A stretch of DNA of 64,000 nucleotides from an uncultured Alphaproteobacteria bacterium (GCA_937903135.1 CALDAH010000008.1:1515-65514); one strand, 5' to 3'. Numbered from the stretch's first letter, positions 4,574 to 34,637 are shown. Numbers and translations are program-made. The notes: generated from the sequence alone by a model not told the origin.

Positions 4574-5935
4574 ATGCGTCGTATTTCTGTTTCTGTATTA
4601 ACGATTTTTATCGCATTGCCGGCATTTGCAAACGCGCGTCTGCCGGTTGTTAACGTTGCCGCGGGCAGTGTATCGGCCCGGGCCGCATTCGGTGTTTCGG
4701 ACGTCGCCGCGCCACGGGAAAAACAAAATAACGTCGCCGTGGTCGCTGCTACTAAACCAAAACCGACCGATGTTCCGGCATCAAAAACAGCTAAAAAAAC
4801 AGTTGTCGCACGCAGCGGGAAAAAAGCCGCCAATGTGGGTGTAAAAAAATCATCCGCCGACAGCGGGGAACAGATTATCGCCGCTGCGGATGTTTTATCG
4901 CCGCGTCGGCCAAGTGCTGATCTGTGGGCGAAAAACGATACGCCACTGCGTTTGCCCCAGCCCGATGAGTTTTCGGTAATCCGGGCCGATTATGATTTAC
5001 CAGAAGAGGATTTAAACGCCGGGCCGATTGCGCCGCAGAAAACTGTTGTTGCGCGCGCCGCGGTAAAAAGCGCACCTGCGCCGGCCGCACCCACCGATAC
5101 GCCGATGGCAGAGATAGATACCCAGATCGCACGTTTGGTTGAACTGCAGCGTCGCGCCGATGAAAGTGTTCGCAGTGCGCCGGTTGCGCGGGTCGCCGAA
5201 CGTGATGTCGCGCCGATGCCTGTTGTGGCGAAAAATAATAATATCGCGCCCGCACCGGTCGCGGCGGTGGATAATCCCGAACCGGTAAGGGTTAGTCGCA
5301 TGGTTGTCCCGATGGAATCGGATGTGGTTGTGCGCAGTGTTGAAAAAAATGCATCACCGCGTATTACGGCCGTTCGCGACGATATGACAAAGATGAACCC
5401 GGCCGAGCTGCGCAAGGCGTTTCGTAAAACATTTTTATCCGAAAATAAACATTTATCCACGTTCCAGATTGATGATCGCTTTGACGTGGCCAGTGATATG
5501 ACAACCAATGCCGAAGGGTTTACGGCAAAACGCGATTTGTCCGAGGCCGGTGGAATTCGCCCGCTGGAGATTAAAATACGATTCCGTAATGATGATTCTG
5601 CGCTGTCGCGTGAAAATTATAATCTGTTAAGTGAATATGCCGCAATAGTGGTAAGCAACCCAAAACGTGCGATTCAGATCGCGATCCCGCAAAGTGTTGC
5701 CCGTAATATGGACGAACGAAAATTGGCCGCACGGCGACTGGCACTGGTTGAACAGGTTTTACGCGATACGGGCGTATCGGAACAGCGAATATTGCCGGTA
5801 TTATCCGCGCGTGATGACGATGGATTTGTTCTGCGGGTTATATCCAGTGACCAGTATGAAACATTAACGCGCAAGCAGCGAGATATGTTCGGTGATACCG
5901 TTAGCAAAAAGACGTATAAAAGCATGTCTTGGTAA
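4574..5935 (+). CDS. Secreted Ala/Pro/Val-rich protein with weak OmpA/MotB-like C-terminal region
   Basis: Signal peptide MRRISVSVLTIFIALPAFANA and a long low-complexity middle. The C-terminus (IRFRNDDSALS...LAARRLALVEQVLRDTGVSEQRI) follows the OmpA_C pattern only loosely. Confidence 0.45.
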   Translation: MRRISVSVLTIFIALPAFANARLPVVNVAAGSVSARAAFGVSDVAAPREKQNNVAVVAATKPKPTDVPASKTAKKTVVARSGKKAANVGVKKSSADSGEQIIAAADVLSPRRPSADLWAKNDTPLRLPQPDEFSVIRADYDLPEEDLNAGPIAPQKTVVARAAVKSAPAPAAPTDTPMAEIDTQIARLVELQRRADESVRSAPVARVAERDVAPMPVVAKNNNIAPAPVAAVDNPEPVRVSRMVVPMESDVVVRSVEKNASPRITAVRDDMTKMNPAELRKAFRKTFLSENKHLSTFQIDDRFDVASDMTTNAEGFTAKRDLSEAGGIRPLEIKIRFRNDDSALSRENYNLLSEYAAIVVSNPKRAIQIAIPQSVARNMDERKLAARRLALVEQVLRDTGVSEQRILPVLSARDDDGFVLRVISSDQYETLTRKQRDMFGDTVSKKTYKSMSW

Positions 5936-9716: not shown

Positions 9717-10445
9717 ATGAGTGAAAAGTTAATTGAAAAACGCTGCATGCAGGCGTATCAATGTGATCGCTATGGTAATGTTCGGCCGTTAATTTTAATG
9801 AATGAACTGCAGGGTATGGCCGATAAACACGCCGAGATACTAGGGTGCGGCCGGACGTATTTAACAGCTAATAACCTGGCCTGGGTTGTAACGCACTATT
9901 TGGTTGATATTATTGAAATGCCGACCGAAAACGAAGAGCTGTCGTTTATTACGTGGCCATCGTGTCAGGATGCGCTGCGTGCCACACGTGATTTTGAAAT
10001 CCACGGTGCGGATGGGCGTCTGATGGTTCGGGCAACGTCACAGTGGATATTAATTGACATGCAGCGTCGTCGCCCGATGCGGTTGGATGAACATCTGCCG
10101 AAATGGTTAATAAATCCGGTGCGTGCATGGGAACGCAGTTTTGATAAATTCCCGTCGTTTGTGCCGGAAAAAACGCATGTTATGAAATGCCGTTTTGATG
10201 ATATTGATGTAAACCAGCATATAAATAACGCAGTATATGCCGTATGGGCAACCGAAAGCGTCGGGTATGTTTATCGTAATCAGCATAAACTGTCGCGAAT
10301 AGAGTTGAATTTTAAAAAAGAAATCAGCCCAGATTCACCAGAGGTTGCGATTGACGTTGCAATTTCCGGGAACGAAAGTCGCCATACAATACGCATCGGC
10401 GATACCGAGCATGCAAGTGTTATATGCACATGGCAGCCGTTATAG
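9717..10445 (+). CDS. Acyl-ACP thioesterase family protein
   Basis: Double hot-dog layout with DIDVNQHINNAVY, typical of FatA/B-like thioesterases. ATG 9717 lies just after the valS stop. Confidence 0.65.
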   Translation: MSEKLIEKRCMQAYQCDRYGNVRPLILMNELQGMADKHAEILGCGRTYLTANNLAWVVTHYLVDIIEMPTENEELSFITWPSCQDALRATRDFEIHGADGRLMVRATSQWILIDMQRRRPMRLDEHLPKWLINPVRAWERSFDKFPSFVPEKTHVMKCRFDDIDVNQHINNAVYAVWATESVGYVYRNQHKLSRIELNFKKEISPDSPEVAIDVAISGNESRHTIRIGDTEHASVICTWQPL

Positions 10446-10449
10446 TATT

Positions 10450-10476
10450 ATTCCCCCCGGCGTGGGGGAATTTTTA
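10450..10476 (+). terminator. Rho-independent terminator after the thioesterase gene
   Basis: 8-bp stem ATTCCCCC / GGGGGAAT with loop CGGCGT, then TTTTT. Confidence 0.6.
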
Positions 10477-10539
10477 TACGGGCATTATATAAAAATCATC
10501 TTTCCTGCCGGCAATAGATATGATATAATTGTTAAAAGA

Positions 10540-12807
10540 ATGAAAAAACTTTTAACATGTTTTTTCGCATTAATAATATCTGCCCCGACCGCGTTTGCTG
10601 CGGATGGGGTAACTGCCTCGCGCGTGATTCCATCGGCAAAGGATACATCGTCGGGCGATAGTGCGCGCGTCGCGGCCCCGCGAACAACTGTTGCGCGCAC
10701 CGCCGCGTCGGCCGCATCCGATGGGGGCGGTGCCCCTGCCAATACGGTTCGTGCGGGATCGCGGGTTATAAATCTGGATAATAATACATCCGGCGCATCG
10801 GCGTCGCGTGGTCGTGATACCACGAACGCTGCCCAGCGTACGGCGGTTGCATCACGCGGGGCGGCCGGGGCAACATCTGCACGCAGTAATTTAGATGCCA
10901 CAGTAAATACCGTCGGGCGCAATGCCCGGGTAGAGGCGGCGAGTATAAACAGCAATCCGTCGGTTCGTCGCGCGGGCCTGACGCTGCGGCCATCCACGGC
11001 CGAGGTTGGCGGCCGTGCAACAATTGCCGGAACGGGGATGCAGACCGGATCTAATTTAAATCAGGGGACGCGTACGGTTCAATCACGTGCCGCCGCGACG
11101 GTTAACGCCGAAACTATTGCCGCGGCCAAGGAACGCTTGGAACAGACGGCCGAGCTGAATAAATCATGTCAGGAACAGTATAACGATTGCATGGATCAGT
11201 TCTGTGCTGTTATTGATGCGAACCAGAAACGTTGCAGCTGCAGTGCAAATTTATCTAAATACACCAAGGTAGAAGAGGCCGTAAACGACGCCAATACCCA
11301 GTTAAACGAGGTTGCCCAGCGTATTCGCTATGTCGGCCTTTCGGCGGACGAGATACGCGCGATTATGACCGCGACCGAGGCCGAAGAGGCACTAACCGGT
11401 GCAACCGATAATACCGAAACGCGCAACATGCTAGACGAGATTGAAAACCTAATCCGTGATCCGTCCAGTGCGACGTCGTATGCGGCGGATCCATATAACG
11501 GTCTGGATCTGGATTTGGATTTTTCATCCGATAGCGGTGATATATTTAACCTGGATTTCTTGAATACAAACTCGTCGTCAAGTTTTTCAAATCTGCGCGG
11601 GGCCGAGCTTTATAACGCGGCCAAGAAACGCTGCAATACCGTATTAAATCAGTGTAAAAGTGCCGGTGCAACGCCACAGCAGATCACGGGTAATTATGAT
11701 TTAGCAATTGATAAGGATTGTATCGCGTACGAGCAGGGCCTATCTAAAATGAACGAAACATTGGTATCCAATGTTCGCAGTGCAAATCGCATGCTGCAAA
11801 AGGCGCGCTTGGCCGTATTACAGAATAAAAATCAATATGACGCAAAGGGATGCATCGCGGCATTAAATACATGTATGACCGACGAAATGGTATGCGGGGC
11901 GGATTATACAAAATGCTTAGACCCGACCAAGATATATATTGATGAAAACGGCAAGGTTGTTCTGGGCCAGAATATTACGAAAATTACGTCGTTTATGGAA
12001 GCATATGATAACTCAAAAATAGATTCAGCAAGTCTAGGTACTGCGTATTCTTCGTCTATGACCGCTGATTCCTGTGCGGGCACTGGTAATGACGGTCGTT
12101 GTGTTATAAAATATTTATTGCAAAAAATCGGAACACGGCAAAAGGTAACTGACGAAGGGCTGTGCCGCGCCGTTCTGGATAAGTGCCAGCGTTATACATA
12201 CGACAGCAATGGGAATTACAGCCCGTATAATGACGTTGTTGTAAATTATATTCAGCGGGCAATGGTAAATATCCGTTCCGCCCAGCAAAAGATTATATCC
12301 GACTATGCGTCCAGCTGTATGGTTGACGTTGCCGCGTGTTATAACCAGCAGGTAACCCAGGTTAACGCATGGTCGTCATCTGCTAATGCGGCCAGCATCC
12401 AGGCGGTAATGCGCGGGGCATGTCGCAACGTGGCGTTAACGTGTGGCTATGCGATCTTTGATGGCCCGCCTGTAATTTCGAACAGCGAAAACACGGTTCA
12501 GGGATGCACATACGTAACCCAGGATTGCACGGGGGCGAATAATACCGATGCGTGCCGCAATAATGCATATATCGCGTGTATATCAGATATGTTCTATCAG
12601 TCGCTGTTGTGTCCGGAAAATTCAACGTATAACCCCGATGGCACAAAAGTTGATGCGAACGGTACTGCCGCCGGCTGGGTAAATAGCAGATGTAAGTGCC
12701 GCGCGGGATATACCGTATGGGGCGGGGCGTGCTTGGTTGATTGCGCCGCCGACGAGACACGTAATAGCTATGGCACATGTCAAAAAAAGGCAGCCGGCAG
12801 TAATTAA
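10540..12807 (+). CDS. Secreted protein: Ala/Arg/Ser/Thr-rich N-terminal half and cysteine-rich (34 Cys) C-terminal half
   Basis: ATG 10540 gives the signal peptide MKKLLTCFFALIISAPTAFA. An extended -10 (TGATATAAT, 10521-10529) lies just upstream. Cys spacing recurs (CQEQYNDCMDQFCAV..., CKCRAGYTVWGGACLVDC). Confidence 0.6.
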   Translation: MKKLLTCFFALIISAPTAFAADGVTASRVIPSAKDTSSGDSARVAAPRTTVARTAASAASDGGGAPANTVRAGSRVINLDNNTSGASASRGRDTTNAAQRTAVASRGAAGATSARSNLDATVNTVGRNARVEAASINSNPSVRRAGLTLRPSTAEVGGRATIAGTGMQTGSNLNQGTRTVQSRAAATVNAETIAAAKERLEQTAELNKSCQEQYNDCMDQFCAVIDANQKRCSCSANLSKYTKVEEAVNDANTQLNEVAQRIRYVGLSADEIRAIMTATEAEEALTGATDNTETRNMLDEIENLIRDPSSATSYAADPYNGLDLDLDFSSDSGDIFNLDFLNTNSSSSFSNLRGAELYNAAKKRCNTVLNQCKSAGATPQQITGNYDLAIDKDCIAYEQGLSKMNETLVSNVRSANRMLQKARLAVLQNKNQYDAKGCIAALNTCMTDEMVCGADYTKCLDPTKIYIDENGKVVLGQNITKITSFMEAYDNSKIDSASLGTAYSSSMTADSCAGTGNDGRCVIKYLLQKIGTRQKVTDEGLCRAVLDKCQRYTYDSNGNYSPYNDVVVNYIQRAMVNIRSAQQKIISDYASSCMVDVAACYNQQVTQVNAWSSSANAASIQAVMRGACRNVALTCGYAIFDGPPVISNSENTVQGCTYVTQDCTGANNTDACRNNAYIACISDMFYQSLLCPENSTYNPDGTKVDANGTAAGWVNSRCKCRAGYTVWGGACLVDCAADETRNSYGTCQKKAAGSN

Positions 12808-13509: not shown

Positions 13510-13567
13510 ATTAATCTCGCATAAAATATAGTTTTTATTATTTAACTTTGTGTATTATAATGAATAC

Positions 13568-15667
13568 ATGAATTTAATGCTAGAAAATCTTAATCCCGAA
13601 CAGAGATTAGCTGTCGAGACCACCGAAGGCCCATTATTGGTTTTATCCGGCGCGGGTACGGGGAAAACACGTGTTTTAACAACGCGCATTGCATATATAC
13701 TAAACTCTGGCCTGGCGCTGCCGTGGCAGGTTTTGGCACTGACATTTACAAACAAGGCGGCAAATGAAATGAAATCGCGTATTGCGTCGTTTGCCGCGGA
13801 TCGCGATGACTGGTATGCGGCCGATTTATGGGCGGGGACGTTTCATTCGGTATGTTTGCGAATCCTGCGGGCAAATGCCGATCGTGCGGGACTGCGTCGT
13901 GATTTTTTAATATATGGCGAAGATGATCAAAAGGCCGTTATAAAATCAATTATCGCAACGCGCGGCGGCAGTACAAAAACGCCCGGCGATTATATGGAAC
14001 AGTTTTCCACGATCAAGGACAAGGGCCTGGTCGCGCTGCAAAATACCGATCCCGTATATTTGGCGTATAACGCAGAACTCGCGCGATTAAACGCCGTAGA
14101 CTTCGGGGATATTATATTAAAGGTATTGGATTTATTTAACAATAACCCTGATGTTTTAGAACGATATCAAAAACAGTTTAAATATATTTTGGTTGACGAG
14201 TTCCAGGATACCAACAACGCCCAGATGCAGTTTTTAGAGATGCTAACGCGCGGGCGTGAATACCCGAATATCTGCTGTGTTGGTGATGACGATCAGTCTA
14301 TTTATTCATGGCGCGGGGCCGAGATTGCGCATATTCTGAACTTTGATAAAACCTTTAACGATGCGCAGATAATTCGTCTGGAAACAAATTACCGCAGTAC
14401 GTCAAATATACTTGGCGCGGCAAATTCATTAATTCGCCATAATCAGGGCCGTTTAGGCAAAGATCTGCGCGCGGCGGCCGATAACGGCACGGGCGAACCG
14501 GTTTATGTTTTAACCGTCCCGGGCGACCACGACGAGGCGCGCGTAATCGCCGATGCAATACTGCGTGACGGGGATGCGTTTAGTAAATTCGCCGTATTAA
14601 TTCGCGCCGGATCACTATCGCGATTATTAGAAGAAGAATTCGGCCGCCGCGGGATACCATTTCGCTTAATCGGCGCGACTAAGTTCTATGACCGGATGGA
14701 AATTCGCGACGCGATCGCATATATTCGTTTATTGGTATATCCGTTTGACGATATATCTTTTTTGCGGGTAATTGCAAAACCGCGTCGTGGTTTCGGCCCG
14801 GCAGCGATTGAAAAGATGCGCAGCGCAGGCGATAATTTAATGGCCGGGATGCGCAGTGCTGAATTCTCGGCGAAGCTGCGCGCCACCGCGGACGAGTTTT
14901 TATCCGCATTTGATTTTGATTGGCAAAATATGACCCCGCGTGATGCCGCCCAAAATTTATTAAACAGGGCCGGTTATATAAAAATGTGGGAACAATCCAA
15001 GGATGCCGATGCCCAGGACAGATTGGCAAATATTCGCGAACTGCTAAACAGCGTTGTTGCGAAATACGAAACCTTGGCCGAATTTTTAGAACAGGCCGCG
15101 CTGATGATGACCGATGACAATGATACGGACGTGGCCGGCGGGAATAATAACACGGTCAGTGTTATGACAATTCATGCGGCAAAGGGACTGGAGTTTGATA
15201 CTGTATTTTTACCCGCCTGGGAAGATGGAATTTTCCCGAATGATAAAGCTATATCCGAAGGTGCGCTGGAGGAAGAACGCCGCTTGGCATATGTTGCGAT
15301 TACGCGTGCGCGCCGGCGTGCAATAATCCTTAATGCTATGTCGCGAATGGTATTCGGGGCACGGCAATATAATTCGCCAAGTCGTTTTATAACCGAAATG
15401 GATAATCAATATCTGGATTTCCAGGGCGGCGTATCACAGCGCAGATCGTATTATGCAGATGTCCCGCGTGCGTATGGAAATAATTATCAGCGCGCGTCTG
15501 CCCGCGGGCGCATGGCGAATGCCGAACAGAAATGGGTCGGAAAGCTGGTTGCGCACGACGAGCTGGGGCACGGGACAGTTATTGCGGAAAACGGAAATGT
15601 TTTAACCGTTGCATTCGGCAGTCGCGGGATGAAAAACGTTATGAAAGAATTTTTAACGCTGATATAG
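13568..15667 (+). CDS. uvrD: UvrD/PcrA/Rep-family SF1 DNA helicase
   Basis: LNPEQRLAV, GAGTGKTRVLT (Walker A), DEFQDTN, YRS, TIHAAKGLEF and VAITRAR motifs. The start could also be GTG 13550. Confidence 0.9.
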   Translation: MNLMLENLNPEQRLAVETTEGPLLVLSGAGTGKTRVLTTRIAYILNSGLALPWQVLALTFTNKAANEMKSRIASFAADRDDWYAADLWAGTFHSVCLRILRANADRAGLRRDFLIYGEDDQKAVIKSIIATRGGSTKTPGDYMEQFSTIKDKGLVALQNTDPVYLAYNAELARLNAVDFGDIILKVLDLFNNNPDVLERYQKQFKYILVDEFQDTNNAQMQFLEMLTRGREYPNICCVGDDDQSIYSWRGAEIAHILNFDKTFNDAQIIRLETNYRSTSNILGAANSLIRHNQGRLGKDLRAAADNGTGEPVYVLTVPGDHDEARVIADAILRDGDAFSKFAVLIRAGSLSRLLEEEFGRRGIPFRLIGATKFYDRMEIRDAIAYIRLLVYPFDDISFLRVIAKPRRGFGPAAIEKMRSAGDNLMAGMRSAEFSAKLRATADEFLSAFDFDWQNMTPRDAAQNLLNRAGYIKMWEQSKDADAQDRLANIRELLNSVVAKYETLAEFLEQAALMMTDDNDTDVAGGNNNTVSVMTIHAAKGLEFDTVFLPAWEDGIFPNDKAISEGALEEERRLAYVAITRARRRAIILNAMSRMVFGARQYNSPSRFITEMDNQYLDFQGGVSQRRSYYADVPRAYGNNYQRASARGRMANAEQKWVGKLVAHDELGHGTVIAENGNVLTVAFGSRGMKNVMKEFLTLI

Positions 15668-15673
15668 TTTTTT

Positions 15674-16975
15674 CTATTTTTTCCCATCGCGTATAATTTT
15701 TATCCAATCGCGGGCTGTGCTGTATGCCTTTTTCGCCCGGGATGTTATGTCGTCGCCGAATTTATCCCCCAATGATTTATCAACACTCCCGCCGAGGTCG
15801 GTGGCAATTTCACCCGCGCGGTTCGCCAGATATGCGACCAGCAGCCCCGTTAGCAGTGTTATCATAAATCCGCTGTTATTAATTGACGGGACATTCCCGG
15901 CCAGATCGCCCGACACTGCGCCCGATAAAATCGCCGCACAGACAGCGATTACAATAGACAAGGATACAAAATATATTGCCGCGTTTATAAAACGTTTAAT
16001 CTGCTCGTCCAGGGAAAATGCACCTAGTTTAAATATTCCCATAAAACCGTTAAATATATCGCCAACGATTCCCTTATATGATGTTTTTCCAATTGTTTCG
16101 GCGATCGCGGTAAACGGCAACAACAGGACCGATAAGAATAAATCGGCGATAACCCCGATGGCCATTAATGCAAATTTCCATATATTAATTATAAACACAA
16201 CAACCATTACCGCCCCGGCCAGAAATGTAAACGCGCTGTGCCCGATGCCGGCAATCATCCATTTAAAACCGGCCATAATCCCGGTATAGAAAAATCCCGA
16301 CAGGCGTGTCGGCACGCATATTATATCAGCCGCGCTGCGGGCGCTGATTATCATATCCGGCGATGTATGTGTTGCGGCATAATCGCGTATCGCGGCACAG
16401 GTATCGGGCAGCTGTGCGCCGGCGCTGGATGTAATGGTATTTAATATTAAATCCGATAGATATGTTCCGATTGAAATAATCGGGCCGGCGATCCACATAA
16501 ACAACTGTGCCGGGCCAAAGTTAAGTATTATTGTCCATGCCGCGATTTTTATTGTTTTCTTTACGATTGATTCCAGTAGCTTTCGCACATTCCCATCGCC
16601 GGTCATCATGTTATATGTTTCCAGCATAATCCAAAAAATATACGACAGAATAATAAATATAATCGCAAAACGCACCAAAGAACTGTCCAGCAGATCGCCA
16701 ATAAACGACAACGCATTCATAAACGCCAGACCGACGCGTGCCTCTATCGGGACATAGTTATCCGTTAACTGTTCGGGGAATCCTGATTCAAACTGCGTTA
16801 AATCATGGCTGATATTTTCCACAACCAATTCCCGGTTATGATCGGTTGCCCATGTGCCGATATCGCTAACGTCGCCCATCGGCATGTTGGTTGCCCCGAA
16901 CGCAGGTGTAATAATAACCGCGGCCATGGCGGCGATTAAAACCTTTGATAAAAATTTTCGCAGTATATGTGTCAA
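15674..16975 (-). CDS. Polytopic membrane protein, paralog family member 4 (VirB6/TrbL-like layout, unconfirmed)
   Basis: The ORF-track start at 17167 overlaps the upstream gene by 188 nt. TTG 16975 is preceded by GAGGA and gives a signal-like N-terminus (M)THILRKFLSKVLIAAMAAVIITPAFGA. A Cys pair sits in the loop (DTC...IIC), followed by GIMAGFKWM. Confidence 0.6.
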   Translation of the reverse strand: MTHILRKFLSKVLIAAMAAVIITPAFGATNMPMGDVSDIGTWATDHNRELVVENISHDLTQFESGFPEQLTDNYVPIEARVGLAFMNALSFIGDLLDSSLVRFAIIFIILSYIFWIMLETYNMMTGDGNVRKLLESIVKKTIKIAAWTIILNFGPAQLFMWIAGPIISIGTYLSDLILNTITSSAGAQLPDTCAAIRDYAATHTSPDMIISARSAADIICVPTRLSGFFYTGIMAGFKWMIAGIGHSAFTFLAGAVMVVVFIINIWKFALMAIGVIADLFLSVLLLPFTAIAETIGKTSYKGIVGDIFNGFMGIFKLGAFSLDEQIKRFINAAIYFVSLSIVIAVCAAILSGAVSGDLAGNVPSINNSGFMITLLTGLLVAYLANRAGEIATDLGGSVDKSLGDKFGDDITSRAKKAYSTARDWIKIIRDGKK

Positions 16976-16979
16976 AATA

Positions 16980-18449
16980 TTATTCCTCGCCGATGGATTT
17001 TGATATCTTTTCAAATATTTGTTTTGGCGCGCCCCATATCTTTTTGCCGACGTCATATGTCCATGCGCCGAAGTCAAATTCTTCCTTTGAATCCAATTTT
17101 TTATCTTCGCCCGGTATCGGCAGTTTAATTGTCCCGGCCGGCAGTATCGCATCAATTTTCGGCCCAATCGCGTAATAGTACAGTAAAAACAGTCCGATCA
17201 TAAGTAACAGAAAATCAAAGCCGTTGGATAAAAAGTCAAATGCACCGGGGTATGCGCGTTCAACCGCCGCGCGCTGGGCAGTAAAACAGTTTTTAAATTT
17301 GTATTTGTCCATTTCCCCGTCGGCCAATGCGACCTGCTCACATGTTGCAAATACATTCGCAACAGATAATGTTTTGGCATCGGGGTTTGTTAATTTCTGG
17401 CCCATTAATGGCGGCATTATCGCGCTGTATCCATCGCGCGGGCCGGGGAAGTATGTATCGGCCGCAAATGAAACGGTTGCGTATAGTATTACGATTTTAA
17501 GTGTTATCGCAACAATTCGTACGGCGGATGATACGACCATATTTATCGCTTTTTTAAACAATCCCCCGGCAGCACCCCATATCGGTTCATACGCCGCGGC
17601 CGCAAGTAACAGCGGCAGGAAAATTATTACAAATATCAGTTTAAATACGACCGAGAGGATTTGAAAAAATAAATCAAATCCGATAATTAAAAACATTAAA
17701 ACCAAAACCAGTCCCGCTACCCATGTAAATGCCCCGCCGCCCATATCCATCCATGCATAGTTCATCATGGCAAACCCGCCCGCGGCCCCGGCCAGTGCCA
17801 CGGTATTTAGATTCCCAATAACGCACATAAACGGTTGTAGAATTGGGTTCAAAACGTCATCTGTGGTTGTATTTAATGCCCCGCATGTTGTCGCATCAGA
17901 TGTTCCGGATGCCAACATTGCCAATTCGGCCCCGACGAACATTACCGGCCGGATTGTAATATCTGCAACCGTTCGCAGTGCCGTATTCCCGCCAAGCCCG
18001 AGTGTCCCCATCATTGCGCCGACGATAAGTATTCGCGCACCCTGACGCCATATCTTGTCAAACCATGCCTTAAATTCCAGTTTCTGTTCCCCGGTCCCGA
18101 GTGACGCGGTTTTTTTTGCGGCATCAAATATATATCGGGCGGTATGAATAAATAAAAATATACCGAATCCGATTGCCATTAAAATCCAGAGATTATTTAC
18201 CAGCGTATCCCAGAACATTTCTGTCGCCCGGCCGATAACCGCGAACAGTTCCGATACATATCGGCATAAAAAACAACCGTTTGTATTTGCGATATCGCCC
18301 GCCCCGCCGATAGCATTTAAAAACGCGCCGGTGCTGGAATATGTTAACGCCGCGCCACCGATTGACGATGACATATACCATATGCCGATGCCCAACGCAA
18401 TTAGCGACATAATAACGCGGACGGCAATCATTATTAGCTTTGCTTTCAT
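16980..18449 (-). CDS. Polytopic membrane protein, paralog family member 3
   Basis: ATGA overlap with the upstream gene. N-terminal CFLCRYVSELF motif, loop Cys pair (TTC...FMC), then AAGGFAMM and multiple TM helices. Confidence 0.65.
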   Translation of the reverse strand: MKAKLIMIAVRVIMSLIALGIGIWYMSSSIGGAALTYSSTGAFLNAIGGAGDIANTNGCFLCRYVSELFAVIGRATEMFWDTLVNNLWILMAIGFGIFLFIHTARYIFDAAKKTASLGTGEQKLEFKAWFDKIWRQGARILIVGAMMGTLGLGGNTALRTVADITIRPVMFVGAELAMLASGTSDATTCGALNTTTDDVLNPILQPFMCVIGNLNTVALAGAAGGFAMMNYAWMDMGGGAFTWVAGLVLVLMFLIIGFDLFFQILSVVFKLIFVIIFLPLLLAAAAYEPIWGAAGGLFKKAINMVVSSAVRIVAITLKIVILYATVSFAADTYFPGPRDGYSAIMPPLMGQKLTNPDAKTLSVANVFATCEQVALADGEMDKYKFKNCFTAQRAAVERAYPGAFDFLSNGFDFLLLMIGLFLLYYYAIGPKIDAILPAGTIKLPIPGEDKKLDSKEEFDFGAWTYDVGKKIWGAPKQIFEKISKSIGEE

Positions 18450-19648
18450 TTATTGCCACCCTTGTTATCTGGTTTTTCGCCGCCTGATATTATTGTTTGA
18501 CCAACGCTTTTCGCGATGTTAATTACAGACCCGGTAAGCTTCATTGCATCATTGGCCAGCTGTTCGCTTAGCTTGTTTTCCTCGGATGCGCCGAATGCGC
18601 TAAGTATCATTTTTTTTACCGTCGGGATTTGATCGTATATATAGTTTAAAACATAGACCAAAATAACCGCGCTGCCAAGTGTTAATGCCGCCAGATTTTC
18701 ATCCGACAGGTCGTCCGAAAATACCTGGCCGCTGACGATTTTTTGCATTAGATCCGCGCTGCTAATATCCGGGTCAGAAAAGAACTTGGCGATGATTGTC
18801 ATTATAACAGTATATGTTATTACCGCCGCGGACAGTGCAATAATTGCCCCGATTAGCTGTTTAATTTTATCCGTGCCAACATTTCTCCCGAGTCCCGATA
18901 TCCATCCAGGGACGCTGCCTGCACCCTTAAACGATATTAAAACCAATGACAGCGGGAAAAAGAACGCAAAGAACGTCATCGCGATAATAATATCTGCGAA
19001 ATAAAAACAGAAGCGAACGAATAATTTAAAAAATCCGTAAAACAGGTATAACCCTATAACAAACAAAATCAAATGCTTAATTAATTCCCCGATCCCGATT
19101 AGGGCTTTCCATGAAAACGCGTGGTCCATAACCGCGATCCCAAGTTTCATATATGCCTGAAACTGCGTGATGGTTGTTTTCATTAGCATAATAATTATAT
19201 TGCGCAGCTCGGGCCGATAAAAACCGTTACTCGCCATCGGCAGCGGTTGATATGTAACCTTTTCATTTACTGTGGCATTGTCGGTTTGAACCATTGCCTG
19301 GGTGTATATCAATGCTATCTCGGCGGCCGGTTCAAATGTTACGCGCCCGATAAATCGCGGCAGGGCGACCCCCATACTTAAAAACGTCATTGCGATAATG
19401 CCGTTTATTAATACGGGCCGAATAGATTTCTGATACCATGGGTCGGTAACCCCGCCCTTGATATTTTGCCATACGGCGTTTATAACAAAGAACGAAAATA
19501 ATATGCAAAATAATATAACACAAAATAATGCAAACCGGCCGTATATCGCACCGGCGGCATCCGATACAATCTGAAACAATCGGTCAAATATTGGGCAACC
19601 CCAACATTGCACGGTGCTGTCTATGAAAGTATGTGCTAATTCATTCAT
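18446..19648 (-). CDS. Polytopic membrane protein, paralog family member 2
   Basis: 4-nt gap to the upstream gene. N-terminal CWGCPIFDRLF motif, multiple TM helices and a Gly/Lys-rich tail. Confidence 0.65.
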   Translation of the reverse strand: MNELAHTFIDSTVQCWGCPIFDRLFQIVSDAAGAIYGRFALFCVILFCILFSFFVINAVWQNIKGGVTDPWYQKSIRPVLINGIIAMTFLSMGVALPRFIGRVTFEPAAEIALIYTQAMVQTDNATVNEKVTYQPLPMASNGFYRPELRNIIIMLMKTTITQFQAYMKLGIAVMDHAFSWKALIGIGELIKHLILFVIGLYLFYGFFKLFVRFCFYFADIIIAMTFFAFFFPLSLVLISFKGAGSVPGWISGLGRNVGTDKIKQLIGAIIALSAAVITYTVIMTIIAKFFSDPDISSADLMQKIVSGQVFSDDLSDENLAALTLGSAVILVYVLNYIYDQIPTVKKMILSAFGASEENKLSEQLANDAMKLTGSVINIAKSVGQTIISGGEKPDNKGGNK

Positions 19649-19652
19649 TTAT

Positions 19653-20927
19653 TTATTTTTTACCCCATCCCAGCGCGTTGCCGATTTTGCCGCCCCAGTT
19701 TTTAGTATTGTTCCATAATTTTTTTGTATCACCGATAGATTTGTTATACAGCCCCGTCATATCCCCGCCGATATATTGGTTAAGCTGATCGCGGGTAAGT
19801 TTAAATATACGAAGCATTAAATAAAACGTCAGTATCGCCGATATCCACATAATAGAATGCCCCCCGAAACCCATCGGGGTATTTGCGACCGTCGGAACAT
19901 TAGAGTTTGCCATCCCATTCGCAGCGACAACAAATACTTGGCTATTCCATTGAAACAGTGCATAAATCACGGCCAGGTTAATGCATAATATAAACGCGCA
20001 TGCGATCATGGTAATAACCAGCTGCTGGAGTGCTTTGGTTATACCGGAAAATGCCGGCCATACGTCAAACCATTTATCACTGGATTTTACAACGTATGTT
20101 AAAACCTGAAACGGGTAGAGTATAAGTGCCATCCCAAGGTTAAATATACCCTGAATAATTAACAGTGCCATAAACAGATTACTTGCGATGAATGTTATAA
20201 TTAGTAATATTCCGGTAACCAGGCTCATAAAATCCTGGCCGCCGTGCGGGATCAGGGTAATCAGCCCGCGCAGGCCATTGGTTAAAAAATCAAATCCGCG
20301 TTTAACCACCTGGTTATTCGCGCGTGATAAATCCGCGACCGGCCGGATTAGGAATTCACACGACGAAGGTGATATCCATCCATGGCGAATAACATCGGCC
20401 GGACACTCTATTTTTTCAATCCCGACGCCCGTCCCGTTAATCGTTTCGGTAATTGCGTGCGTATAAATCGCGCCGAATTGCAAAAACGGATTAACCAGCC
20501 ATTCGGTTACAAACACGGGCCTTATCTGCAGTAATATAACGGCCGCGACCAGGGCACGAATAACAGGCTTCATAACATTATTTTGAATTATTCCAAAACC
20601 GCTGACGTTGCCGTTATAAAAATCCCCGCCGCCCGATATGCCGAACAGCGACGACCACTGCTTTGGAAAATACATCTTTAAAATACCGGTCGCCAGTGAT
20701 ACGGCCAAAAATCCCCAGACCAGAACATAAATAATCCCCGTCCCTTTCCCAACAAAGAAATCATAACAACCGGTCGCGACCAGCATAAACGCATCTAAAA
20801 CAATCGGGACAATTGGTGCGATATTCAGCTTATCAATAATATCCGGCGCGGCCATAGCAGCGGTTGGCATTATGAATATAAATGCAGTAAAGAGTTGTTT
20901 TAAAAATTTTGATTTAAACAATTTCAT
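19653..20927 (-). CDS. Polytopic membrane protein, paralog family member 1 (signal peptide)
   Basis: Signal peptide ...IMPTAAMAAP, loop Cys pair (IEC...SSC), TM cluster and Lys/Gly/Trp-rich tail. Confidence 0.65.
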   Translation of the reverse strand: MKLFKSKFLKQLFTAFIFIMPTAAMAAPDIIDKLNIAPIVPIVLDAFMLVATGCYDFFVGKGTGIIYVLVWGFLAVSLATGILKMYFPKQWSSLFGISGGGDFYNGNVSGFGIIQNNVMKPVIRALVAAVILLQIRPVFVTEWLVNPFLQFGAIYTHAITETINGTGVGIEKIECPADVIRHGWISPSSCEFLIRPVADLSRANNQVVKRGFDFLTNGLRGLITLIPHGGQDFMSLVTGILLIITFIASNLFMALLIIQGIFNLGMALILYPFQVLTYVVKSSDKWFDVWPAFSGITKALQQLVITMIACAFILCINLAVIYALFQWNSQVFVVAANGMANSNVPTVANTPMGFGGHSIMWISAILTFYLMLRIFKLTRDQLNQYIGGDMTGLYNKSIGDTKKLWNNTKNWGGKIGNALGWGKK

Positions 20928-20993
20928 GCGTTTAATATTTTTTATCTTTTCAATTATATCACATTTGATGCAAAATATGATATAGTTAAAACA

Positions 20994-22280
20994 ATGAATT
21001 GGTTAAAAAAGTTTTGGATAGTTTTTTTATCATTCCTCCCGTTCGGGGCCGGGGCGGTCGCGCCGTTTGTTGTTGGCGGTATCGCAGGGATTGGTGTTAT
21101 TGCGGGATTTGCAATCTATCGCACGGCTGCGCCTGTAAATATGGCGGATGCGATGAACTTTTTTTCAACATGCTGGACATGTCAGATGTTTTCGGATGTT
21201 ATGGCGACAATGTCGTCGGTATTACCGAATATTTATAATGCAATCGGTCACGTAATAATTCCGTTTGCTGTGATATTAACCGCGATATGGTTCGCCTGGC
21301 GCTTAGCGTCCGGATTTATAAACGGCAAATCCGAAGATGCATGGACACTATCGGGCAGTTTCGGGACGCATCTGATAAAGCTGGCATTTATATCGGCGTT
21401 GCTGGTTGCCCCGCTGCCGCGAATGCTAACGGATATTGTAATTGAACCGGTATTTCACGTCGGGCTGTCTATTAACCGTGCCGTGGCCGGGGACGATAAA
21501 TTTGCCGAATGCGTTCTGGCGACGGCGGTGGCCGATCCTGTGGCCGCATCGGAATACGCCGCGACGTCCGGGGCATATTCGCCAAAACTGCGACATAATC
21601 TGGCGTGCGAACTCGCGACCGTTCATCAGATGACAGGACTTGGCATGACGGCCGGTTGGACCATGCTAAATATGGCGTTTAATTCAGAATACATGCATAA
21701 GATTTTATGGGATATACCGTTTTTTCCAAATATTCCGATTTTCTTTGCCGGGCTATTAATTCTGGTGATATTTTTCTGGGCACTGTTGCCAATCCCGCTG
21801 TATTTCCTAGAGGTATTCATAGAACTCTCTATGGATTTAATAATGCTGCCGCTAATGATGCTATCGTGGTTATTCAAAGACTGGGCGATATTCCCGAACG
21901 GGAAAAAGAATATAGAACAGATTATAAACAACGTTATATCCGCGACACTTGGGATCGCAATAACGGGGATTTTTGTAACATTTGCGATAATGTTCCTAAA
22001 TTCTGTATTCGGGAACTGGAACGGTGCGGGTGCATTGGCGGCGGCGATGGCGCAAAACGATTCGACAATATTAATGGATGGCCTGATGATGCGCAACGAC
22101 AGCGTTATTGCAATTATAATGATGGGGATATTTATCGCCATGTTTATGACGATGATTCCGGCCCTGTCAAAGACTTTATTCAATGTTCAGATATCCGAAA
22201 GCTATTATAAATCGGTTCAAAGTCATGCAAAAATTATGCTCGGAAACCTGAAAAAGTGGTATGCAGCGTTAAAAAAATAA
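20994..22280 (+). CDS. Polytopic membrane protein, paralog family member 5 (divergent)
   Basis: N-terminal CWTCQMFSDVM motif, loop Cys pair (AEC...LAC), then GMTAGWTML. It is separated from member 1 by a 66-bp AT-rich divergent spacer. Confidence 0.65.
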   Translation: MNWLKKFWIVFLSFLPFGAGAVAPFVVGGIAGIGVIAGFAIYRTAAPVNMADAMNFFSTCWTCQMFSDVMATMSSVLPNIYNAIGHVIIPFAVILTAIWFAWRLASGFINGKSEDAWTLSGSFGTHLIKLAFISALLVAPLPRMLTDIVIEPVFHVGLSINRAVAGDDKFAECVLATAVADPVAASEYAATSGAYSPKLRHNLACELATVHQMTGLGMTAGWTMLNMAFNSEYMHKILWDIPFFPNIPIFFAGLLILVIFFWALLPIPLYFLEVFIELSMDLIMLPLMMLSWLFKDWAIFPNGKKNIEQIINNVISATLGIAITGIFVTFAIMFLNSVFGNWNGAGALAAAMAQNDSTILMDGLMMRNDSVIAIIMMGIFIAMFMTMIPALSKTLFNVQISESYYKSVQSHAKIMLGNLKKWYAALKK

Positions 22281-22348: not shown

Positions 22349-22858
22349 ATGAAACAGTTTCCGATTCTTTACTGGCCACGCAATACCCGGGGTGATAATG
22401 AATATCCCTTGGCGCGAAAGGTTATAAACGGCGCAACCGGTGTTATGCCGGGGGTCGTAACAGGTGATTTGGATTTAGCAGATATATTTAATCAGAACCC
22501 CGATGCGGCGGTATATTACCCGGTTTTTTGCGAATCAACCGGATGGTGGGGCGAACTGCTTGGCGCAGATGCGGTCGTTTCGGATAAGCTAATAATTTCC
22601 CCGGAATGTCAATTAATGGTCATTGTGGCCAAGAAAAATGCAAACACACGTGGAACAAATCAACTGCTGGCGGCGGAAATATACCCGACCAGTGGTTTTT
22701 TTAAGAAAATGAATTCCGGTATCGCCACGGTATCTGATATGCTGGCGACGGACGCGGGAACAATTCTGGCACTGTTTTCCGGCCGAAATCAAAATCAGTT
22801 TATAAATGTTCTCGAAGCGACGGGGAATTCATATCTCGGCTGTATCGGGCGTTATTAA
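22349..22858 (+). CDS. Hypothetical soluble protein
   Basis: 169-codon ORF downstream of paralog 5 with no recognisable motifs. Confidence 0.4.
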   Translation: MKQFPILYWPRNTRGDNEYPLARKVINGATGVMPGVVTGDLDLADIFNQNPDAAVYYPVFCESTGWWGELLGADAVVSDKLIISPECQLMVIVAKKNANTRGTNQLLAAEIYPTSGFFKKMNSGIATVSDMLATDAGTILALFSGRNQNQFINVLEATGNSYLGCIGRY

Positions 22859-24252: not shown

Positions 24253-25494
24253 TCATTTAATTGATTGTTTAAATAAAGACCAGCCGTGATAATATTTATT
24301 GTTTTCGCACAATCCATCAACTGTCCAATCTTGTTTTTTTTGATGACGATAACAATGTGGATGTTGGAATTTACCACGCCATAAACCTATTTTTTGATTT
24401 ATTGCGTATGATTCTTCTTCTGTATAGGTATATGGTGGATATGTTGAAACCACAGCATAGCCTTCTTTTACCATTTGGCGATTTATTTCAACGCCTTTGC
24501 TATTATAACAAACGGCTAAGCTACGTCCCCATTTTCCATATTTTATCAATTCACAGCTAACTAACCCATTGCCAATAATTTTTTTTACACGTTCTGTTGC
24601 TTCTAATCCACATGCATATTCTTTATTATTTTCATCTAAACACGTTTGTTTTCTTTCAGCAGAATCCATGCCGACTGGGCGAATGACAATAATATCATCA
24701 ATGTGCCACGTATCGCCGTCTGCTATCTTGGATACATTCCCGATAACCCATTTTCGTTTATTATGTTTATTTCGCCACAGCTGAAAATCTTTTACTTTAT
24801 AAAAATCTTTAGGAATATCAAAAGTGGTGTGTTCTTCGCTTGCCAGTTCAATATCTTGATCGTTGATTAAGTTTGATAATTGTGATTTGTCCGTTATCGG
24901 AGCAGGCAATGTGCGCTGATTATTTACATGCATATCATACCTAGATAAATTGGACTTTAATTTACTGTAATGCTTATCAAAAACCCTAATTTCTATGTTG
25001 CTATTATCAAGGCGAATCAGCAGCAGTAAATCACCTGGCTGCGCTAATTTCATAACTTTATTATCGGTACCATAGTATAATCTTTTTTCATTATTTACCG
25101 TTTTTGCGTTGGGATTCCGTCTGGGGCTGTACCAGGTTGACATATGGTTAAATGTTTCTATACCGCTATCGGATATATAATAGTATTTCGCTTTAAATTT
25201 TTTGGATTCTTTTACATCGCCGAGTACAACAACAAATTCCTTTACACCGTATAATTCTCTCATAGTGGACTTGCTTTTGCCACAGTCTGTTTTTGACAGT
25301 TTCTTTAAAGCTAATGAAATATATTCCGTGGGGAATTTGCCGTCCTGAACAACAGCATCTTCCATAACTTGCGTAGATTCATAAGGTGTTTGTATGTCCT
25401 GGCATGCAACTATCCCATATAAGGTTAGTCCGACCCCCACAAAAGCCAAAACAACTAATCTAAGCCGCGTTTTCAGCCAGTTTGAGATTTTCAT
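24253..25494 (-). CDS. Lipoprotein-anchored protein with C-terminal staphylococcal-nuclease (SNase/thermonuclease) domain
   Basis: Lipobox ...LYGIVAC. The C-terminus (KIADGDTWHIDD...RPVGMDSAERKQ...KWGRSLAVC...NRQMVKEGYAVV) follows the SNase pattern DGDT...R..GIDAPE...YGR.L..V...N..LV..G.A. The roughly 230-aa middle region is unassigned. Confidence 0.7.
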   Translation of the reverse strand: MKISNWLKTRLRLVVLAFVGVGLTLYGIVACQDIQTPYESTQVMEDAVVQDGKFPTEYISLALKKLSKTDCGKSKSTMRELYGVKEFVVVLGDVKESKKFKAKYYYISDSGIETFNHMSTWYSPRRNPNAKTVNNEKRLYYGTDNKVMKLAQPGDLLLLIRLDNSNIEIRVFDKHYSKLKSNLSRYDMHVNNQRTLPAPITDKSQLSNLINDQDIELASEEHTTFDIPKDFYKVKDFQLWRNKHNKRKWVIGNVSKIADGDTWHIDDIIVIRPVGMDSAERKQTCLDENNKEYACGLEATERVKKIIGNGLVSCELIKYGKWGRSLAVCYNSKGVEINRQMVKEGYAVVSTYPPYTYTEEESYAINQKIGLWRGKFQHPHCYRHQKKQDWTVDGLCENNKYYHGWSLFKQSIK

Positions 25495-26425
25495 TCACGA
25501 TTCCTGTTTTAAAATCATCATTTACAGGAACAACTTTACAAAGATTATTAAAGGAAAACAATCCTTTTTCGTCCATTTTACGTAAATATTTAATCAGTTG
25601 CTCTGCATTTGCTTGTATGGCTGGAACAATAACCGCATTTCCAAGCTGTCTTATTGCTCGTTCATTTGATACACTTGACATATCAAAAGAATCAGGGAAA
25701 CCCATGATTCGCTTGCCTTCTTTTGCTGTTAAACGACGCCCCATACCGTCAACAATGTAATAATCCCAACAACGGAAGGATTGAGGTGGCATTCCTGTAA
25801 AGCTAGATACCATTGTTCGGGCAATTTTTCTATTTATTGTTTGACATTCAAAAATTTCTTCTAGTGTTTTAGTCAATGGCACCTGAGGAGCAAATTCAAA
25901 CGTACTATCAACTGTATCACCAAGAAAGCCTATGATAAATACTCTTTGACGAACCTGTGGTATATTATGGTCTGTCCCCTTTACTATTTTATAGTTGAAA
26001 GAATAACCAAGTTCCTGTAATGATTCTGATATAATACGAAAACATTCACCATCTTGGGCCGTCAACAGACCTTTGACATTTTCTAAGAAAAAAGCCTTTG
26101 GGCGACGTTGTTTCAATATTTCTAATATATAAAAGAACATTGTTCCTCGTATTTCATCTGCAAACCCCTTTCGCCTTCCCAAGATTGAGAATGATTGACA
26201 TGGAAAACCTGCACACAAAATATCAAAATCGGGAATATCGGCGGGATTTACTGTTGTTATATCTTCGGCCAATCTGTCTGGTGGCATATTAAAGTTGGCT
26301 TGATAAACCTGTCGCGCCCATTTATCTTTATCACAAGCGAATACACATTCGGCCCCAACATTCTCAAATGCAATATGAAAGCCACCTATTCCAGAGAATA
26401 GGTCAATAAATTTGTACTTTTTCAT
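25460..26425 (-). CDS. dcm: DNA (cytosine-5) methyltransferase
   Basis: FIDLFSGIGGF (I), GFPCQSFS (IV), ENVKGL (VI), QVRQRVFIIG (VIII) and QLGNAV (X) motifs. ATG 26425 is preceded by GGAG. The 3' end overlaps the nuclease gene start by 35 nt. Confidence 0.9.
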   Translation of the reverse strand: MKKYKFIDLFSGIGGFHIAFENVGAECVFACDKDKWARQVYQANFNMPPDRLAEDITTVNPADIPDFDILCAGFPCQSFSILGRRKGFADEIRGTMFFYILEILKQRRPKAFFLENVKGLLTAQDGECFRIISESLQELGYSFNYKIVKGTDHNIPQVRQRVFIIGFLGDTVDSTFEFAPQVPLTKTLEEIFECQTINRKIARTMVSSFTGMPPQSFRCWDYYIVDGMGRRLTAKEGKRIMGFPDSFDMSSVSNERAIRQLGNAVIVPAIQANAEQLIKYLRKMDEKGLFSFNNLCKVVPVNDDFKTGIVNENLKLAENAA

Positions 26426-26565
26426 AAAATCTCCATTTTGGATAATAAAAAAACCGACCAAATGGCCGGAAATAAAAAAAAGCGACACACTTGTCGCTTT
26501 GTTGTCTCACATTATATCAGAAAATGGTAAAAAAATCAATATAATATAACGTGCTTATATTATAA

Positions 26566-33542: not shown

Positions 33543-34148
33543 ATGTTAAAAAAAGTAGATGTGGTTGTTTTTGACTTTGACGGAACACTATCATGTGGGG
33601 ATGCAAATATTGAATTTGCAAAATATTGCTTTCGCCGCAGTATTCGTCCATGGCTATATCTGCCGTTAATGGCCGTCGCATCGGTCGGAAAATTCTTAAA
33701 CCCGGGCGGGCTATGGTGGCGTGAAAATATGCGTCGTTTTTTAACAGAATCTATGGTAAAAAAATTCGCCCCGGGATTTATTAAGCAACACCGTCGCGAA
33801 CGATTTGGCTGGGCCAAAGATCAGGTTATCGCCGAACGTAATGCCGGTCGTCGCGTCGTTCTGATATCCGCGTCGCCGGATTACCTGTTGCCGGCATTGG
33901 TTCGTGATATAAAATTTGATGCCGTAATATGCTCGCAAATGGATAAACGGCGTCCGTGGAAATATAAATTTTTATGCTGGGGCGCAAACAAAGTCTATGC
34001 GATGGATGAATGGGCGGCAAATAATAAATATATCCCGCGCGTTATTCGTTCATATTCAGATTCTGCATCCGATATGCCGTTAATGGAAATTGCCGCCGAA
34101 GAGGTATGGGTGGATCGTAAAACGGGACTAAGAAAACGTTCCAAATGA
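33543..34148 (+). CDS. HAD-superfamily (subfamily IB-like) hydrolase
   Basis: Motif I VVVFDFDGTL, then VLISASP, and C-terminal YSDSASDMPL. Confidence 0.7.
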   Translation: MLKKVDVVVFDFDGTLSCGDANIEFAKYCFRRSIRPWLYLPLMAVASVGKFLNPGGLWWRENMRRFLTESMVKKFAPGFIKQHRRERFGWAKDQVIAERNAGRRVVLISASPDYLLPALVRDIKFDAVICSQMDKRRPWKYKFLCWGANKVYAMDEWAANNKYIPRVIRSYSDSASDMPLMEIAAEEVWVDRKTGLRKRSK

Positions 34149-34179
34149 CATTAAATATCATCTGCGCTATAATCATTGC

Positions 34180-34440: not shown

Positions 34441-34482
34441 AATTCCCCGCATTTATTATTAAATAATCTTTAAATAAAATAC

Positions 34483-34511
34483 TTGCGAATTTATTTTTGG
34501 TAAACTATACT
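34483..34511 (+). promoter_or_regulatory. Sigma70-like promoter for tRNA-Ser
   Basis: TTGCGA, 17-nt spacer, TATACT, about 30 nt upstream of the tRNA 5' end. Confidence 0.45.
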
Positions 34512-34540
34512 ACGCGCGTTACTTAATTATAAAGAGTTTC

Positions 34541-34630: not shown

Positions 34631-34637
34631 GTGATAA

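Follow-up and report, generated by a model that had tools for sequence, protein, structure and literature searches.

Between uvrD and rpmE, an alphaproteobacterial chromosome segment of 64,000 nucleotides (GCA_937903135.1, CALDAH010000008.1:1515-65514; the window in the following text) carries a block of five genes, here designated G1 to G5, whose products are all polytopic membrane proteins that Pfam and NCBIfam annotation overlooks. What do these proteins do, and why are there five of them? The original prediction, made from the DNA alone, held that they are paralogs with a VirB6/TrbL-like layout. VirB6 is a polytopic subunit of the inner membrane and forms the base of the stalk or channel of a type IV secretion system (T4SS). 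Sequence comparisons described below established that the five proteins represent a single ancient paralogous family, which likely belongs to the VirB6/TrbL superfamily. The best reading of the block, which we consider fairly probable, is that of a divergent VirB6 array that, possibly as a heteropentamer, would serve an rvh-like T4SS as the base of its stalk or as its platform.

The five proteins share about 20% identity with each other, and BLAST alignments of single sequences were weak, covering 325 aa at 24% identity for G1 and G4 and about 290 aa at 22% identity for G3 and G5. Comparison of ortholog profiles by hhalign gave probabilities of 97.3% for the G3-G5 pair (E = 2.6e-11), 94.7% for G1-G2, 94.3% for G1-G4, 75.6% for G1-G5, and 66.9% for G2-G3, as well as weak scores for G4-G5 (44.2%) and G2-G5 (42.3%). 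The G1-G3 (21.1%), G3-G4 (1.3%), and G2-G4 (0.9%) pairs showed no direct match; they could be connected solely via other family members or in the iterative search. The stronger alignments were collinear and extended over most of the protein for G1-G4, G1-G5, G2-G3, and G3-G5 and over ∼150 columns for G1-G2. Reversed sequences, which served as composition-matched controls, never scored above 3.1%. When a library of 1.84 billion representative proteins was searched exhaustively with the G5 profile, proteins of the G3 family were retrieved at E-values of 1e-8 to 1e-10, and those resembling G2 at 1e-5 to 1e-6. Local iteration from G5 recovered first G3 (2e-12), then G2 (5e-24) and G4 (6e-11), and then G1 (7e-23), with each E-value taken before the respective member entered the profile. 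Given the agreement of the profile comparisons, library search, iteration, and shared landmarks, and the low scores of the reversed controls, these proteins are true and ancient paralogs. The pairwise and multiple alignments that the original prediction had proposed thus bore out its view that they are not random membrane open reading frames (ORFs): mutual similarity was significant at the profile level, with three pairs at 94 to 97%.

Each of the five proteins contains several strongly hydrophobic segments of transmembrane (TM) length, as judged from hydropathy, and an alignment guided by hidden Markov models placed three landmarks in all of them: xPxxxxG, which follows TM2; G[WFI]xx[ML]; and a Pro residue within a TM segment. 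A C[WF]xC motif, which had escaped earlier notice, is common to G2, G3, and G5, where it is found just before the first core TM helix. Pairs of Cys residues in the loop are spaced as C-x19-C in G2, C-x26-C in G1, C-x31-C in G5, and C-x14-C in G4; in G1, G2, and G5, the second Cys is located exactly 12 residues ahead of the [AM][AT]G[GA]... G[FW]xx[ML] motif. The loop Cys pairs, the cysteines of C[WF]xC, and Cys370 and Cys388 of G2 are invariant across 21 to 24 orthologs, in alignments whose mean column identity is 62 to 73%; G5 and G2 are the two most conserved family members. The motifs noted originally were real but required small corrections. The Cys pair followed by G-[FW]-x-x-M does occur in G1, G2, and G5, with the above spacings in place of C-x(21-33)-C, and the Cys residues of G4, described as 17 residues apart, are closer to each other. 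The common layout likewise stood with respect to the TM-length segments, whereas the C-terminal tails, thought to be Lys/Gly-rich, proved to be Lys/Arg-rich in G1 to G5 and additionally Gly-rich in G3 and G4 only.

The N-termini are signal-peptide-like in G1, G4, and probably G5; G2 has a hydrophobic helix in this place, and G3 has no extra segment. With such N-termini, G1, G2, G4, and G5 would have the amphipathic/TM1 segment in the periplasm, along with the CxxC motif and their loop Cys pairs. The combination of signal-peptide-like N-termini with invariant, predicted periplasmic Cys pairs and CxxC motifs suggests that these proteins have disulfide-stabilized periplasmic domains.

The connection of this family to VirB6/TrbL was made through intermediate sequences. 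The G5 profile matched 213 library proteins at E ≤ 1e-3. Among its distant full-length relatives, 28 of 65 matched the TrbL domain (PF04610), with the best E-value of 1.2e-8 and one score above the gathering cut-off. That protein, P0333, has a 32.7-bit TrbL match (cut-off, 25.9) at residues 808 to 914, overlapping the G5-profile match at residues 634 to 870; in P0290, the TrbL match spans residues 401 to 517, and the G5-profile match spans residues 233 to 523. A few of the relatives also touch the NCBIfam models of TrbL/VirB6. When the enlarged superfamily profile was compared by hhalign with an alignment of 121 PF04610-positive sequences, consisting of TrwI (the VirB6 protein of R388) and 120 proteins of its family, the probability rose over iterations from 56% to 89% and 92.5% (E = 4.8e-7), while the reversed TrwI family scored at most 1.6%. 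The 57 aligned columns correspond to the conserved Pro...Trp core of VirB6, with the G5 segment LPLMMLSWLFKDW aligned with GPLFILALIWQPTHRFF of TrwI and the G5 core LPLMMLSW(292)LFKDW(297) falling onto the TrwI core. This core includes the Trp residue that is essential in Agrobacterium VirB6 (PMC2653234). The TM-embedded Pro is aligned in all five proteins, and invariant core Trp residues are found in G5 (Trp292 and Trp297), G4 (Trp286 and Trp290), and G2 (Trp291).

Structural comparison pointed to the same family. The AlphaFold 2 models of G4 and G5 are all-helical, and in a Foldseek search against 350,542 PDB chains, only the TrwI/VirB6 chains of R388 (PDB entries 7o3v, 8rt9, and 8rtd), verified as TrwI, reached probabilities of 0.8 to 1.0. 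The G5 model matched chain 8rt9_F with a probability of 1.00 and TM-scores of 0.41 (query) and 0.58 (target) over 340 columns; for G4, TrwI/VirB6 chains were the top matches, with probabilities of up to 1.00. All remaining matches had probabilities below 0.45 and TM-scores below 0.22. The predicted topology of the five proteins fits that of the canonical VirB6; G3, for instance, opens with an amphipathic helix and TM1 in the same way as VirB6. The VirB6/TrbL likeness that was originally seen in the layout is thus supported as a remote homology by the PF04610-matching intermediates, the superfamily-to-TrwI alignment, and the fold comparison.

The window comes from a member of “Candidatus Enterousia” (order Rs-D84), a gut alphaproteobacterium, where it belongs to a contig of MAG GCA_948762305.1, and its relatives are labeled either “Candidatus Enterousia” or uncultured Alphaproteobacteria. 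Most biosynthetic pathways and the standard transporters are missing from Enterousia, gut bacteria with genomes of 0.75 to 1.0 Mb that are believed to rely on partner cells (PMC12306168). Conservation of the array was analyzed in 24 loci from species-representative genomes, collected with G4 as the probe, and in 80 metagenome loci, collected with G5. The probe gene G4 is present in all 24 genome loci; all five genes, in the same arrangement, are found in each of the 21 loci that are long enough, and the 3 short or incomplete loci hold those genes that fit. The G5 homologs in the metagenome loci, a count that covers G5 alone, show 52 to 73% identity. On the 3′ side of G5, the genes for the 169-aa protein p169, RpmE, and inositol monophosphatase are constant, and the array is located next to rpmE in all 23 genome loci that cover that side. 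Because the array is constant and its rpmE side is fixed, while several species show rearrangements on the side of uvrD, the array is a core feature of the lineage that is bounded by G1 on one side. The uvrD-array-rpmE arrangement, proposed for checking in related genomes, is thus conserved throughout in its rpmE half but not in its uvrD half. Orthologs of the G5 family with identity as low as 33% were seen among the library matches; these presumably come from other genera of the order Rs-D84.

The superfamily occurs in metagenome-assembled genomes (MAGs) of uncultured Alphaproteobacteria: the named G5-profile matches all came from such MAGs, and no named Rickettsiales protein was among the 20 matches that were looked up. 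Two MAG loci, L035 and L040 (GCA_016735385.1 and GCA_016735395.1), encode five co-directional overlapping genes for proteins of 457, 435, 435, 499, and 469 aa, whose best matches are, in this order, G5, G4, G3, G2, and G1, at 21 to 24% identity; the assignments to G4 (70%) and G1 (49%) rest on hhalign. These MAGs have counterparts of four of the five types, and probably of the fifth as well, in the same 5-4-3-2-1 order. Hence the set of five types, in this order, is older than a deep split, and the only change in Enterousia was the inversion of G5. The preservation of order at such low identity shows that the types are old and argues against a recent amplification and in favor of five non-redundant subunits. 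Accordingly, the suggested parallel to the tandem amplification of VirB6 genes in Rickettsiales survives as a divergent VirB6-like array but not as a recent expansion. The surroundings of the array in L035 (L035:10001-16884 and L035:1-2267) include, ∼8 kb upstream, genes for a type IVb pilus (TcpQ, secretin, and PilO), as well as unknown genes in an operon that diverges from the array.

Other relatives are larger. Locus L034 has five tandem members of 770, 781, 857, 474, and 650 aa, and L037 (MAG GCA_028706255.1) has four, the last of which is fused to an M23 peptidase. The L037 array is found ∼7 kb from the genes for a homolog of VirB11 (E = 4.7e-18 against TrwD) and for a protein with the TrbI/VirB10 domain (E = 2.5e-11), and because of this proximity the superfamily is T4SS-associated in at least one lineage. 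Fusions in the relatives include M23 peptidase and VgrG3-like wall-hydrolase domains, as in P0333 and P0343, which combine Peptidase_M23, VgrG3-like_C, and TrbL; such wall-hydrolase fusions are to be expected for an envelope-spanning machine. Many distant members (P0333, P0322, P0343, and others, including those in L037 and L038) are 950 to 1,330 aa in length, with the M23 and sometimes the VgrG3-like domain N-terminal of the membrane domain, and each of these fusion genes is followed by a conserved gene for a regulator with a double helix-turn-helix.

Among the solved structures, the closest parallel is the R388 VirB6, a membrane-inserted pentamer that forms the stalk base and is the proposed site of pilin assembly (PMC9259494). 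Similarly to G1 to G5, TrwI (PDB 7O3V, 8RT9, and 8RTD; PF04610) is an all-helical polytopic inner-membrane protein that has an N-terminal amphipathic helix and TM1, followed by a periplasmic loop, a TM block with the Pro...Trp core, and a basic C-terminal tail; it is the lone high-probability structural match, and as a pentamer it has as many subunits as there are paralogs in the array (PMC9259494). In contrast to TrwI, to which they show no direct sequence match, G1 to G5 are 60 to 150 aa longer, have an extra N-terminal signal or TM segment in four of the five proteins, contain invariant CxxC motifs and loop Cys pairs, and are encoded by five distinct genes rather than one, with no virB operon around them.

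In biological terms, the closest analogue is the rvh system of Rickettsiales: Rickettsia encode five tandem RvhB6 paralogs, which are ∼80% divergent and whose VirB6 domain of ∼413 aa is conserved only in a short TM-cytoplasmic segment, while the other vir genes of the rvh system are scattered in islets (PMC2653234). Both RvhB6a-e and G1 to G5 are sets of five tandem, extremely divergent, vertically inherited genes for VirB6 domains on the chromosomes of reduced-genome alphaproteobacteria; in both cases, other T4SS genes are not adjacent, and the size of the domain is comparable (∼413 aa versus 400 to 489 aa; PMC2653234). Thus, the Enterousia block resembles the RvhB6 array in having three to five tandem, divergent, vertically inherited VirB6 paralogs. 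However, the RvhB6 proteins are 674 to 1,154 aa long, with large flanking extensions and direct matches to PF04610 and COG3704, whereas the Enterousia proteins are bare domains with neither; extensions of the RvhB6 type appear only in their more distant relatives. The RvhB6 array follows rvhB3-rvhB4, whereas in Enterousia it has no virB3 or virB4 neighbor. The fused VirB6-like MAG proteins, such as P0333 and P0343, belong to the same superfamily as G1 to G5, come in tandem arrays of three to five, and have CWxC and the loop Cys pair in common with them, but they are 600 to 1,500 aa long and carry peptidoglycan-hydrolase domains, one of their arrays is close to virB10-virB11, and the arrays lack one-to-one orthology to G1 to G5.

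Because the members of the array are distinct, conserved, locked in order, and translationally coupled, they can be expected to be distinct and probably non-interchangeable subunits of one inner-membrane hetero-oligomer, with translational coupling favoring equal expression. Since the R388 machine contains VirB6 as a homopentamer, the simplest model would be a 1:1:1:1:1 heteropentamer; this stoichiometry is conjectural, and we regard it as a tentative and rather unlikely proposal. In an rvh-like T4SS, the ring would provide the base of the stalk or the platform for translocation, and the remaining genes of the system would be scattered elsewhere in the genome, as they are in Rickettsiales. That the five proteins serve a scattered system of this kind appears to us slightly more probable than the opposite. 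In an organism without most biosynthetic pathways and standard transporters, such a machine would mediate contact-dependent exchange with a partner cell, through export of effectors or DNA or through uptake. A still more speculative and unlikely version is an asymmetric 1:1:1:1:1 VirB6 hetero-ring, in which the symmetry of the R388 homopentamer would be broken by design. Such rings would be old in reduced-genome Alphaproteobacteria and perhaps shared with or ancestral to RvhB6a-e, and the one in Enterousia might even run without a canonical VirB4/VirB10/VirB11 machine, as a conduit to a partner cell that depends on contact.

The reason why Rickettsiales have five divergent VirB6 genes has been a standing question since 2009, and the Enterousia array makes it testable, as a second, unrelated-looking lineage with exactly five VirB6-type genes, encoding bare domains in a fixed order. 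If the heteropentamer model is true, there is one gene for each position of the pentamer. The assignment also gives a first clue to the function of a set of hypothetical membrane proteins in Rs-D84/Enterousia, pointing to a secretion or contact apparatus in common gut bacteria with genomes of less than 1 Mb, and widens the range of sequences in the VirB6/TrbL superfamily, the M23 and VgrG3-like wall-hydrolase fusions among them.

A number of results weigh against the reading of the block as part of a VirB6-based T4SS. None of the five proteins matched TrbL (PF04610) in an hmmscan search of Pfam even at E ≤ 1, so that the direct match sought by the original prediction was not obtained; there was also no match in NCBIfam at the same threshold, none among PDB sequences for the ortholog profiles of G1, G2, and G5, TrwI included, and none in a tblastn search of 72,556 plasmids with G5 and a TrbL-positive relative. 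Taken singly, each family showed no significant hhalign similarity to TrwI or its family, so that VirB6 homology rests on the intermediates and the ∼57-column core. The conserved core Trp is absent in G1 and G3, the confidence of the models is low (predicted local distance difference test scores of 64.7 for G4 and 63.8 for G5), and the Foldseek E-values, 0.02 to 0.3, are not significant alone. Apart from the missing Trp, these results would fit the view that the five are unrelated polytopic proteins, or an unrecognized transporter family, that resemble VirB6 through hydrophobic composition and the geometry of a helical bundle. We consider such a chance resemblance quite improbable, because reversed controls stay at or below 3.1% against 92.5% in the real comparison, the PF04610 matches of the intermediates fall in the homologous segment, VirB6 chains are the sole high-probability fold matches for two paralogs, and the aligned core reproduces the Pro...Trp signature. 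The transporter variant was rejected, as none of the five proteins matched a transporter family in Pfam or NCBIfam, which also removes the ordinary-transporter match named in the original prediction as an objection to its reading; transporter structures appeared in Foldseek only with probabilities of ≤0.2 and TM-scores of <0.22, leaving TrwI as the lone high-probability fold.

A different set of objections concerns the rest of the T4SS. As the original prediction had cautioned, no gene for VirB2 to VirB5, VirB8 to VirB11, or VirD4 is present in the window, either by Pfam context or by phmmer, and a phmmer search with ten R388 Vir proteins of the ORFs in the window and the 24 genome loci, and with the L037 VirB10 and VirB11 as additional queries in the 80 metagenome loci, found no real T4SS gene within 10 kb of the array in 104 loci, within the limited sensitivity of such queries. 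Published analyses of Enterousia mention no T4SS or other secretion system (PMC12306168). These negatives, together with a genome of less than 1 Mb lacking standard transporters (PMC12306168) and the absence of recognizable T4SS neighbors of the L034 and L035 arrays, could mean that the proteins, although descended from VirB6, form a stand-alone complex in the inner membrane with no canonical T4SS (no VirB4, VirB10, VirB11, or VirD4), for example, a conduit or a platform for anchoring that serves uptake from a partner cell upon contact. However, the flanks of the arrays sample ∼190 distinct gene families of ≥200 aa, a minority of a genome of ∼900 genes, and T4SS genes are scattered in Rickettsiales, too (PMC2653234). 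Furthermore, the related L037 MAG has virB10-virB11 beside its array. To our knowledge, there is also no precedent for a VirB6 that functions without VirB4, and on balance we judge the stand-alone complex unlikely, if a serious alternative. VirB6/TrbL genes usually travel on conjugative elements, and the window does contain a mobile region at ∼34 to 47 kb (serine recombinase, Fic, and ParB), so that the array could also be viewed as a decayed remnant of an integrated conjugative element that has lost its other transfer genes. This interpretation was rejected as highly improbable: the array occupies a fixed core position by rpmE in 23 genome loci, has the same GC content as the genome and strongly conserved sequences, keeps its gene order in a distant lineage, has no relaxase, integrase, or repeats nearby, and has no match in the plasmid set. 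Of the two options named in the original prediction, a scattered T4SS and an undescribed envelope complex, the former, with a divergent VirB6 array of a scattered rvh-like T4SS, thus remains the preferred reading.

The coordinates of the five genes, their divergent spacer, and the adjacent p169 ORF are listed in the table. The original prediction of five genes of roughly 400 to 490 codons at 15674 to 22280 was reproduced in full, as all five ORFs, encoding polytopic membrane proteins of 400 to 489 aa, were recovered. Its junctions were also seen in the sequence: a 4-nt gap separates G4 from G3, the G3 stop and the G2 start overlap in ATGA, and G1 starts with a TTG codon 4 nt past the G2 stop, with GAGGA upstream. 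The TTG start was the same in independent gene callers, and the ortholog consensus begins there as well. The four minus-strand genes are translationally coupled. The sequence of the spacer agrees with the description of G5 as a divergent gene, and this spacer presumably holds both promoters. Promoter-like hexamers are present on both strands (20958-20986 on the plus strand and 21006-20977 on the minus strand); in a promoter and terminator scan of the spacer region, the number of hexamers was not above chance.

Table. Position and properties of the array genes and adjacent features in the window
Feature	Position (nt)	Strand	Properties
G1	15674-16975	-	433 aa; last gene in operon; TTG start; signal-peptide-like N-terminus; loop Cys pair C193/C220; IMAGFKWM
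G2	16980-18449	-	489 aa; CFLC; loop Cys pair C189/C209; second pair C370/C388; AAGGFAMM; FLPLLL...W291
G3	18446-19648	-	400 aa; no N-terminal extension; CWGC, amphipathic helix, and TM1 at very start; closest paralog, G5
G4	19653-20927	-	424 aa; first gene in operon; signal-peptide-like N-terminus (..AMA/AP); C175/C190; core LYPF..(x)..KWFDVW
G5	20994-22280	+	428 aa; divergent fifth paralog; CWTC; loop Cys pair C173/C205; MTAGWTML; core LPLMMLSW(292)LFKDW(297)
G4/G5 spacer	20928-20993		66 bp; AT-rich; divergent intergenic region
p169 ORF	22349-22858	+	169 aa; soluble; family unassigned; between G5 and rpmE

The p169 gene, missed in the original prediction, is found directly 3′ of G5 in all 23 loci that cover this position, and its product shows 73 to 82% identity. 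Searches of Pfam, NCBIfam, and PDB sequences gave no match to p169, nor do the extended G5 orthologs contain it as a fusion. The protein is a possible candidate for an accessory or co-transcribed partner of the array. At 10417-12807 (plus strand), the window encodes a 796-aa secreted protein, with a signal peptide, a low-complexity region rich in Ala, Ser, Thr, and Arg, and a very Cys-rich C-terminal half, that has no Pfam or NCBIfam family. This gene stays near the array despite the rearrangement of the flanks, adjoining G1 in L023 and being found on the opposite side in L016, and its product could be a surface or adhesin partner. Beside the distant arrays, no homolog of either p169 or the 796-aa protein was found. 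A 453-aa protein encoded at 4574-5935 (plus strand) has a weak OmpA-like peptidoglycan-binding C-terminus. Its homolog (E = 2e-23) is encoded directly 3′ of the five-gene array in L034 (L034:17448-18929), and in several Enterousia species (L005, L007, and L008) its gene is located beside the block of the inositol monophosphatase gene, rpmE, p169, and G5.

Apart from these genes, the Pfam content of the window consists of housekeeping functions (cell-wall genes and LeuRS), an RND efflux operon, ComEC, and the mobile region. During the T4SS search, two weak VirB11 matches in the genome loci were identified by Pfam as MgsA AAA+ ATPases, one further weak VirB11 match was seen in the metagenome loci, and ten flank ORFs that initially looked novel turned out to be Lpt, PPDK, RlmN, and similar proteins. 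Two low-GC (0.35) genes at 24253-26488 (minus strand) encode a DNA methylase of the Dcm type and a 413-aa protein that has a staphylococcal nuclease domain; because none of the 24 related genome loci contains this pair, it likely represents an insertion specific to the strain. A restriction enzyme of the NgoBV type is encoded at about 53236-53859. The uvrD gene at 13550-15667 (plus strand) codes for 632 aa in the NCBI assembly and 699 aa in two Logan assemblies of the same sequence, a difference that stems from the calling of the start site or the assembly and is not a biological one. The region at ∼34000-47000 has a low GC content (0.34 to 0.44) and looks like an integrated mobile element. 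It encodes a serine recombinase (35936-37573), a 1,196-aa ResIII/SNF2 helicase (38302-41892), a fragment resembling a terminase, and one protein each of the ParB_N, HNH, and Fic types, and in other samples this block is found on separate short contigs.

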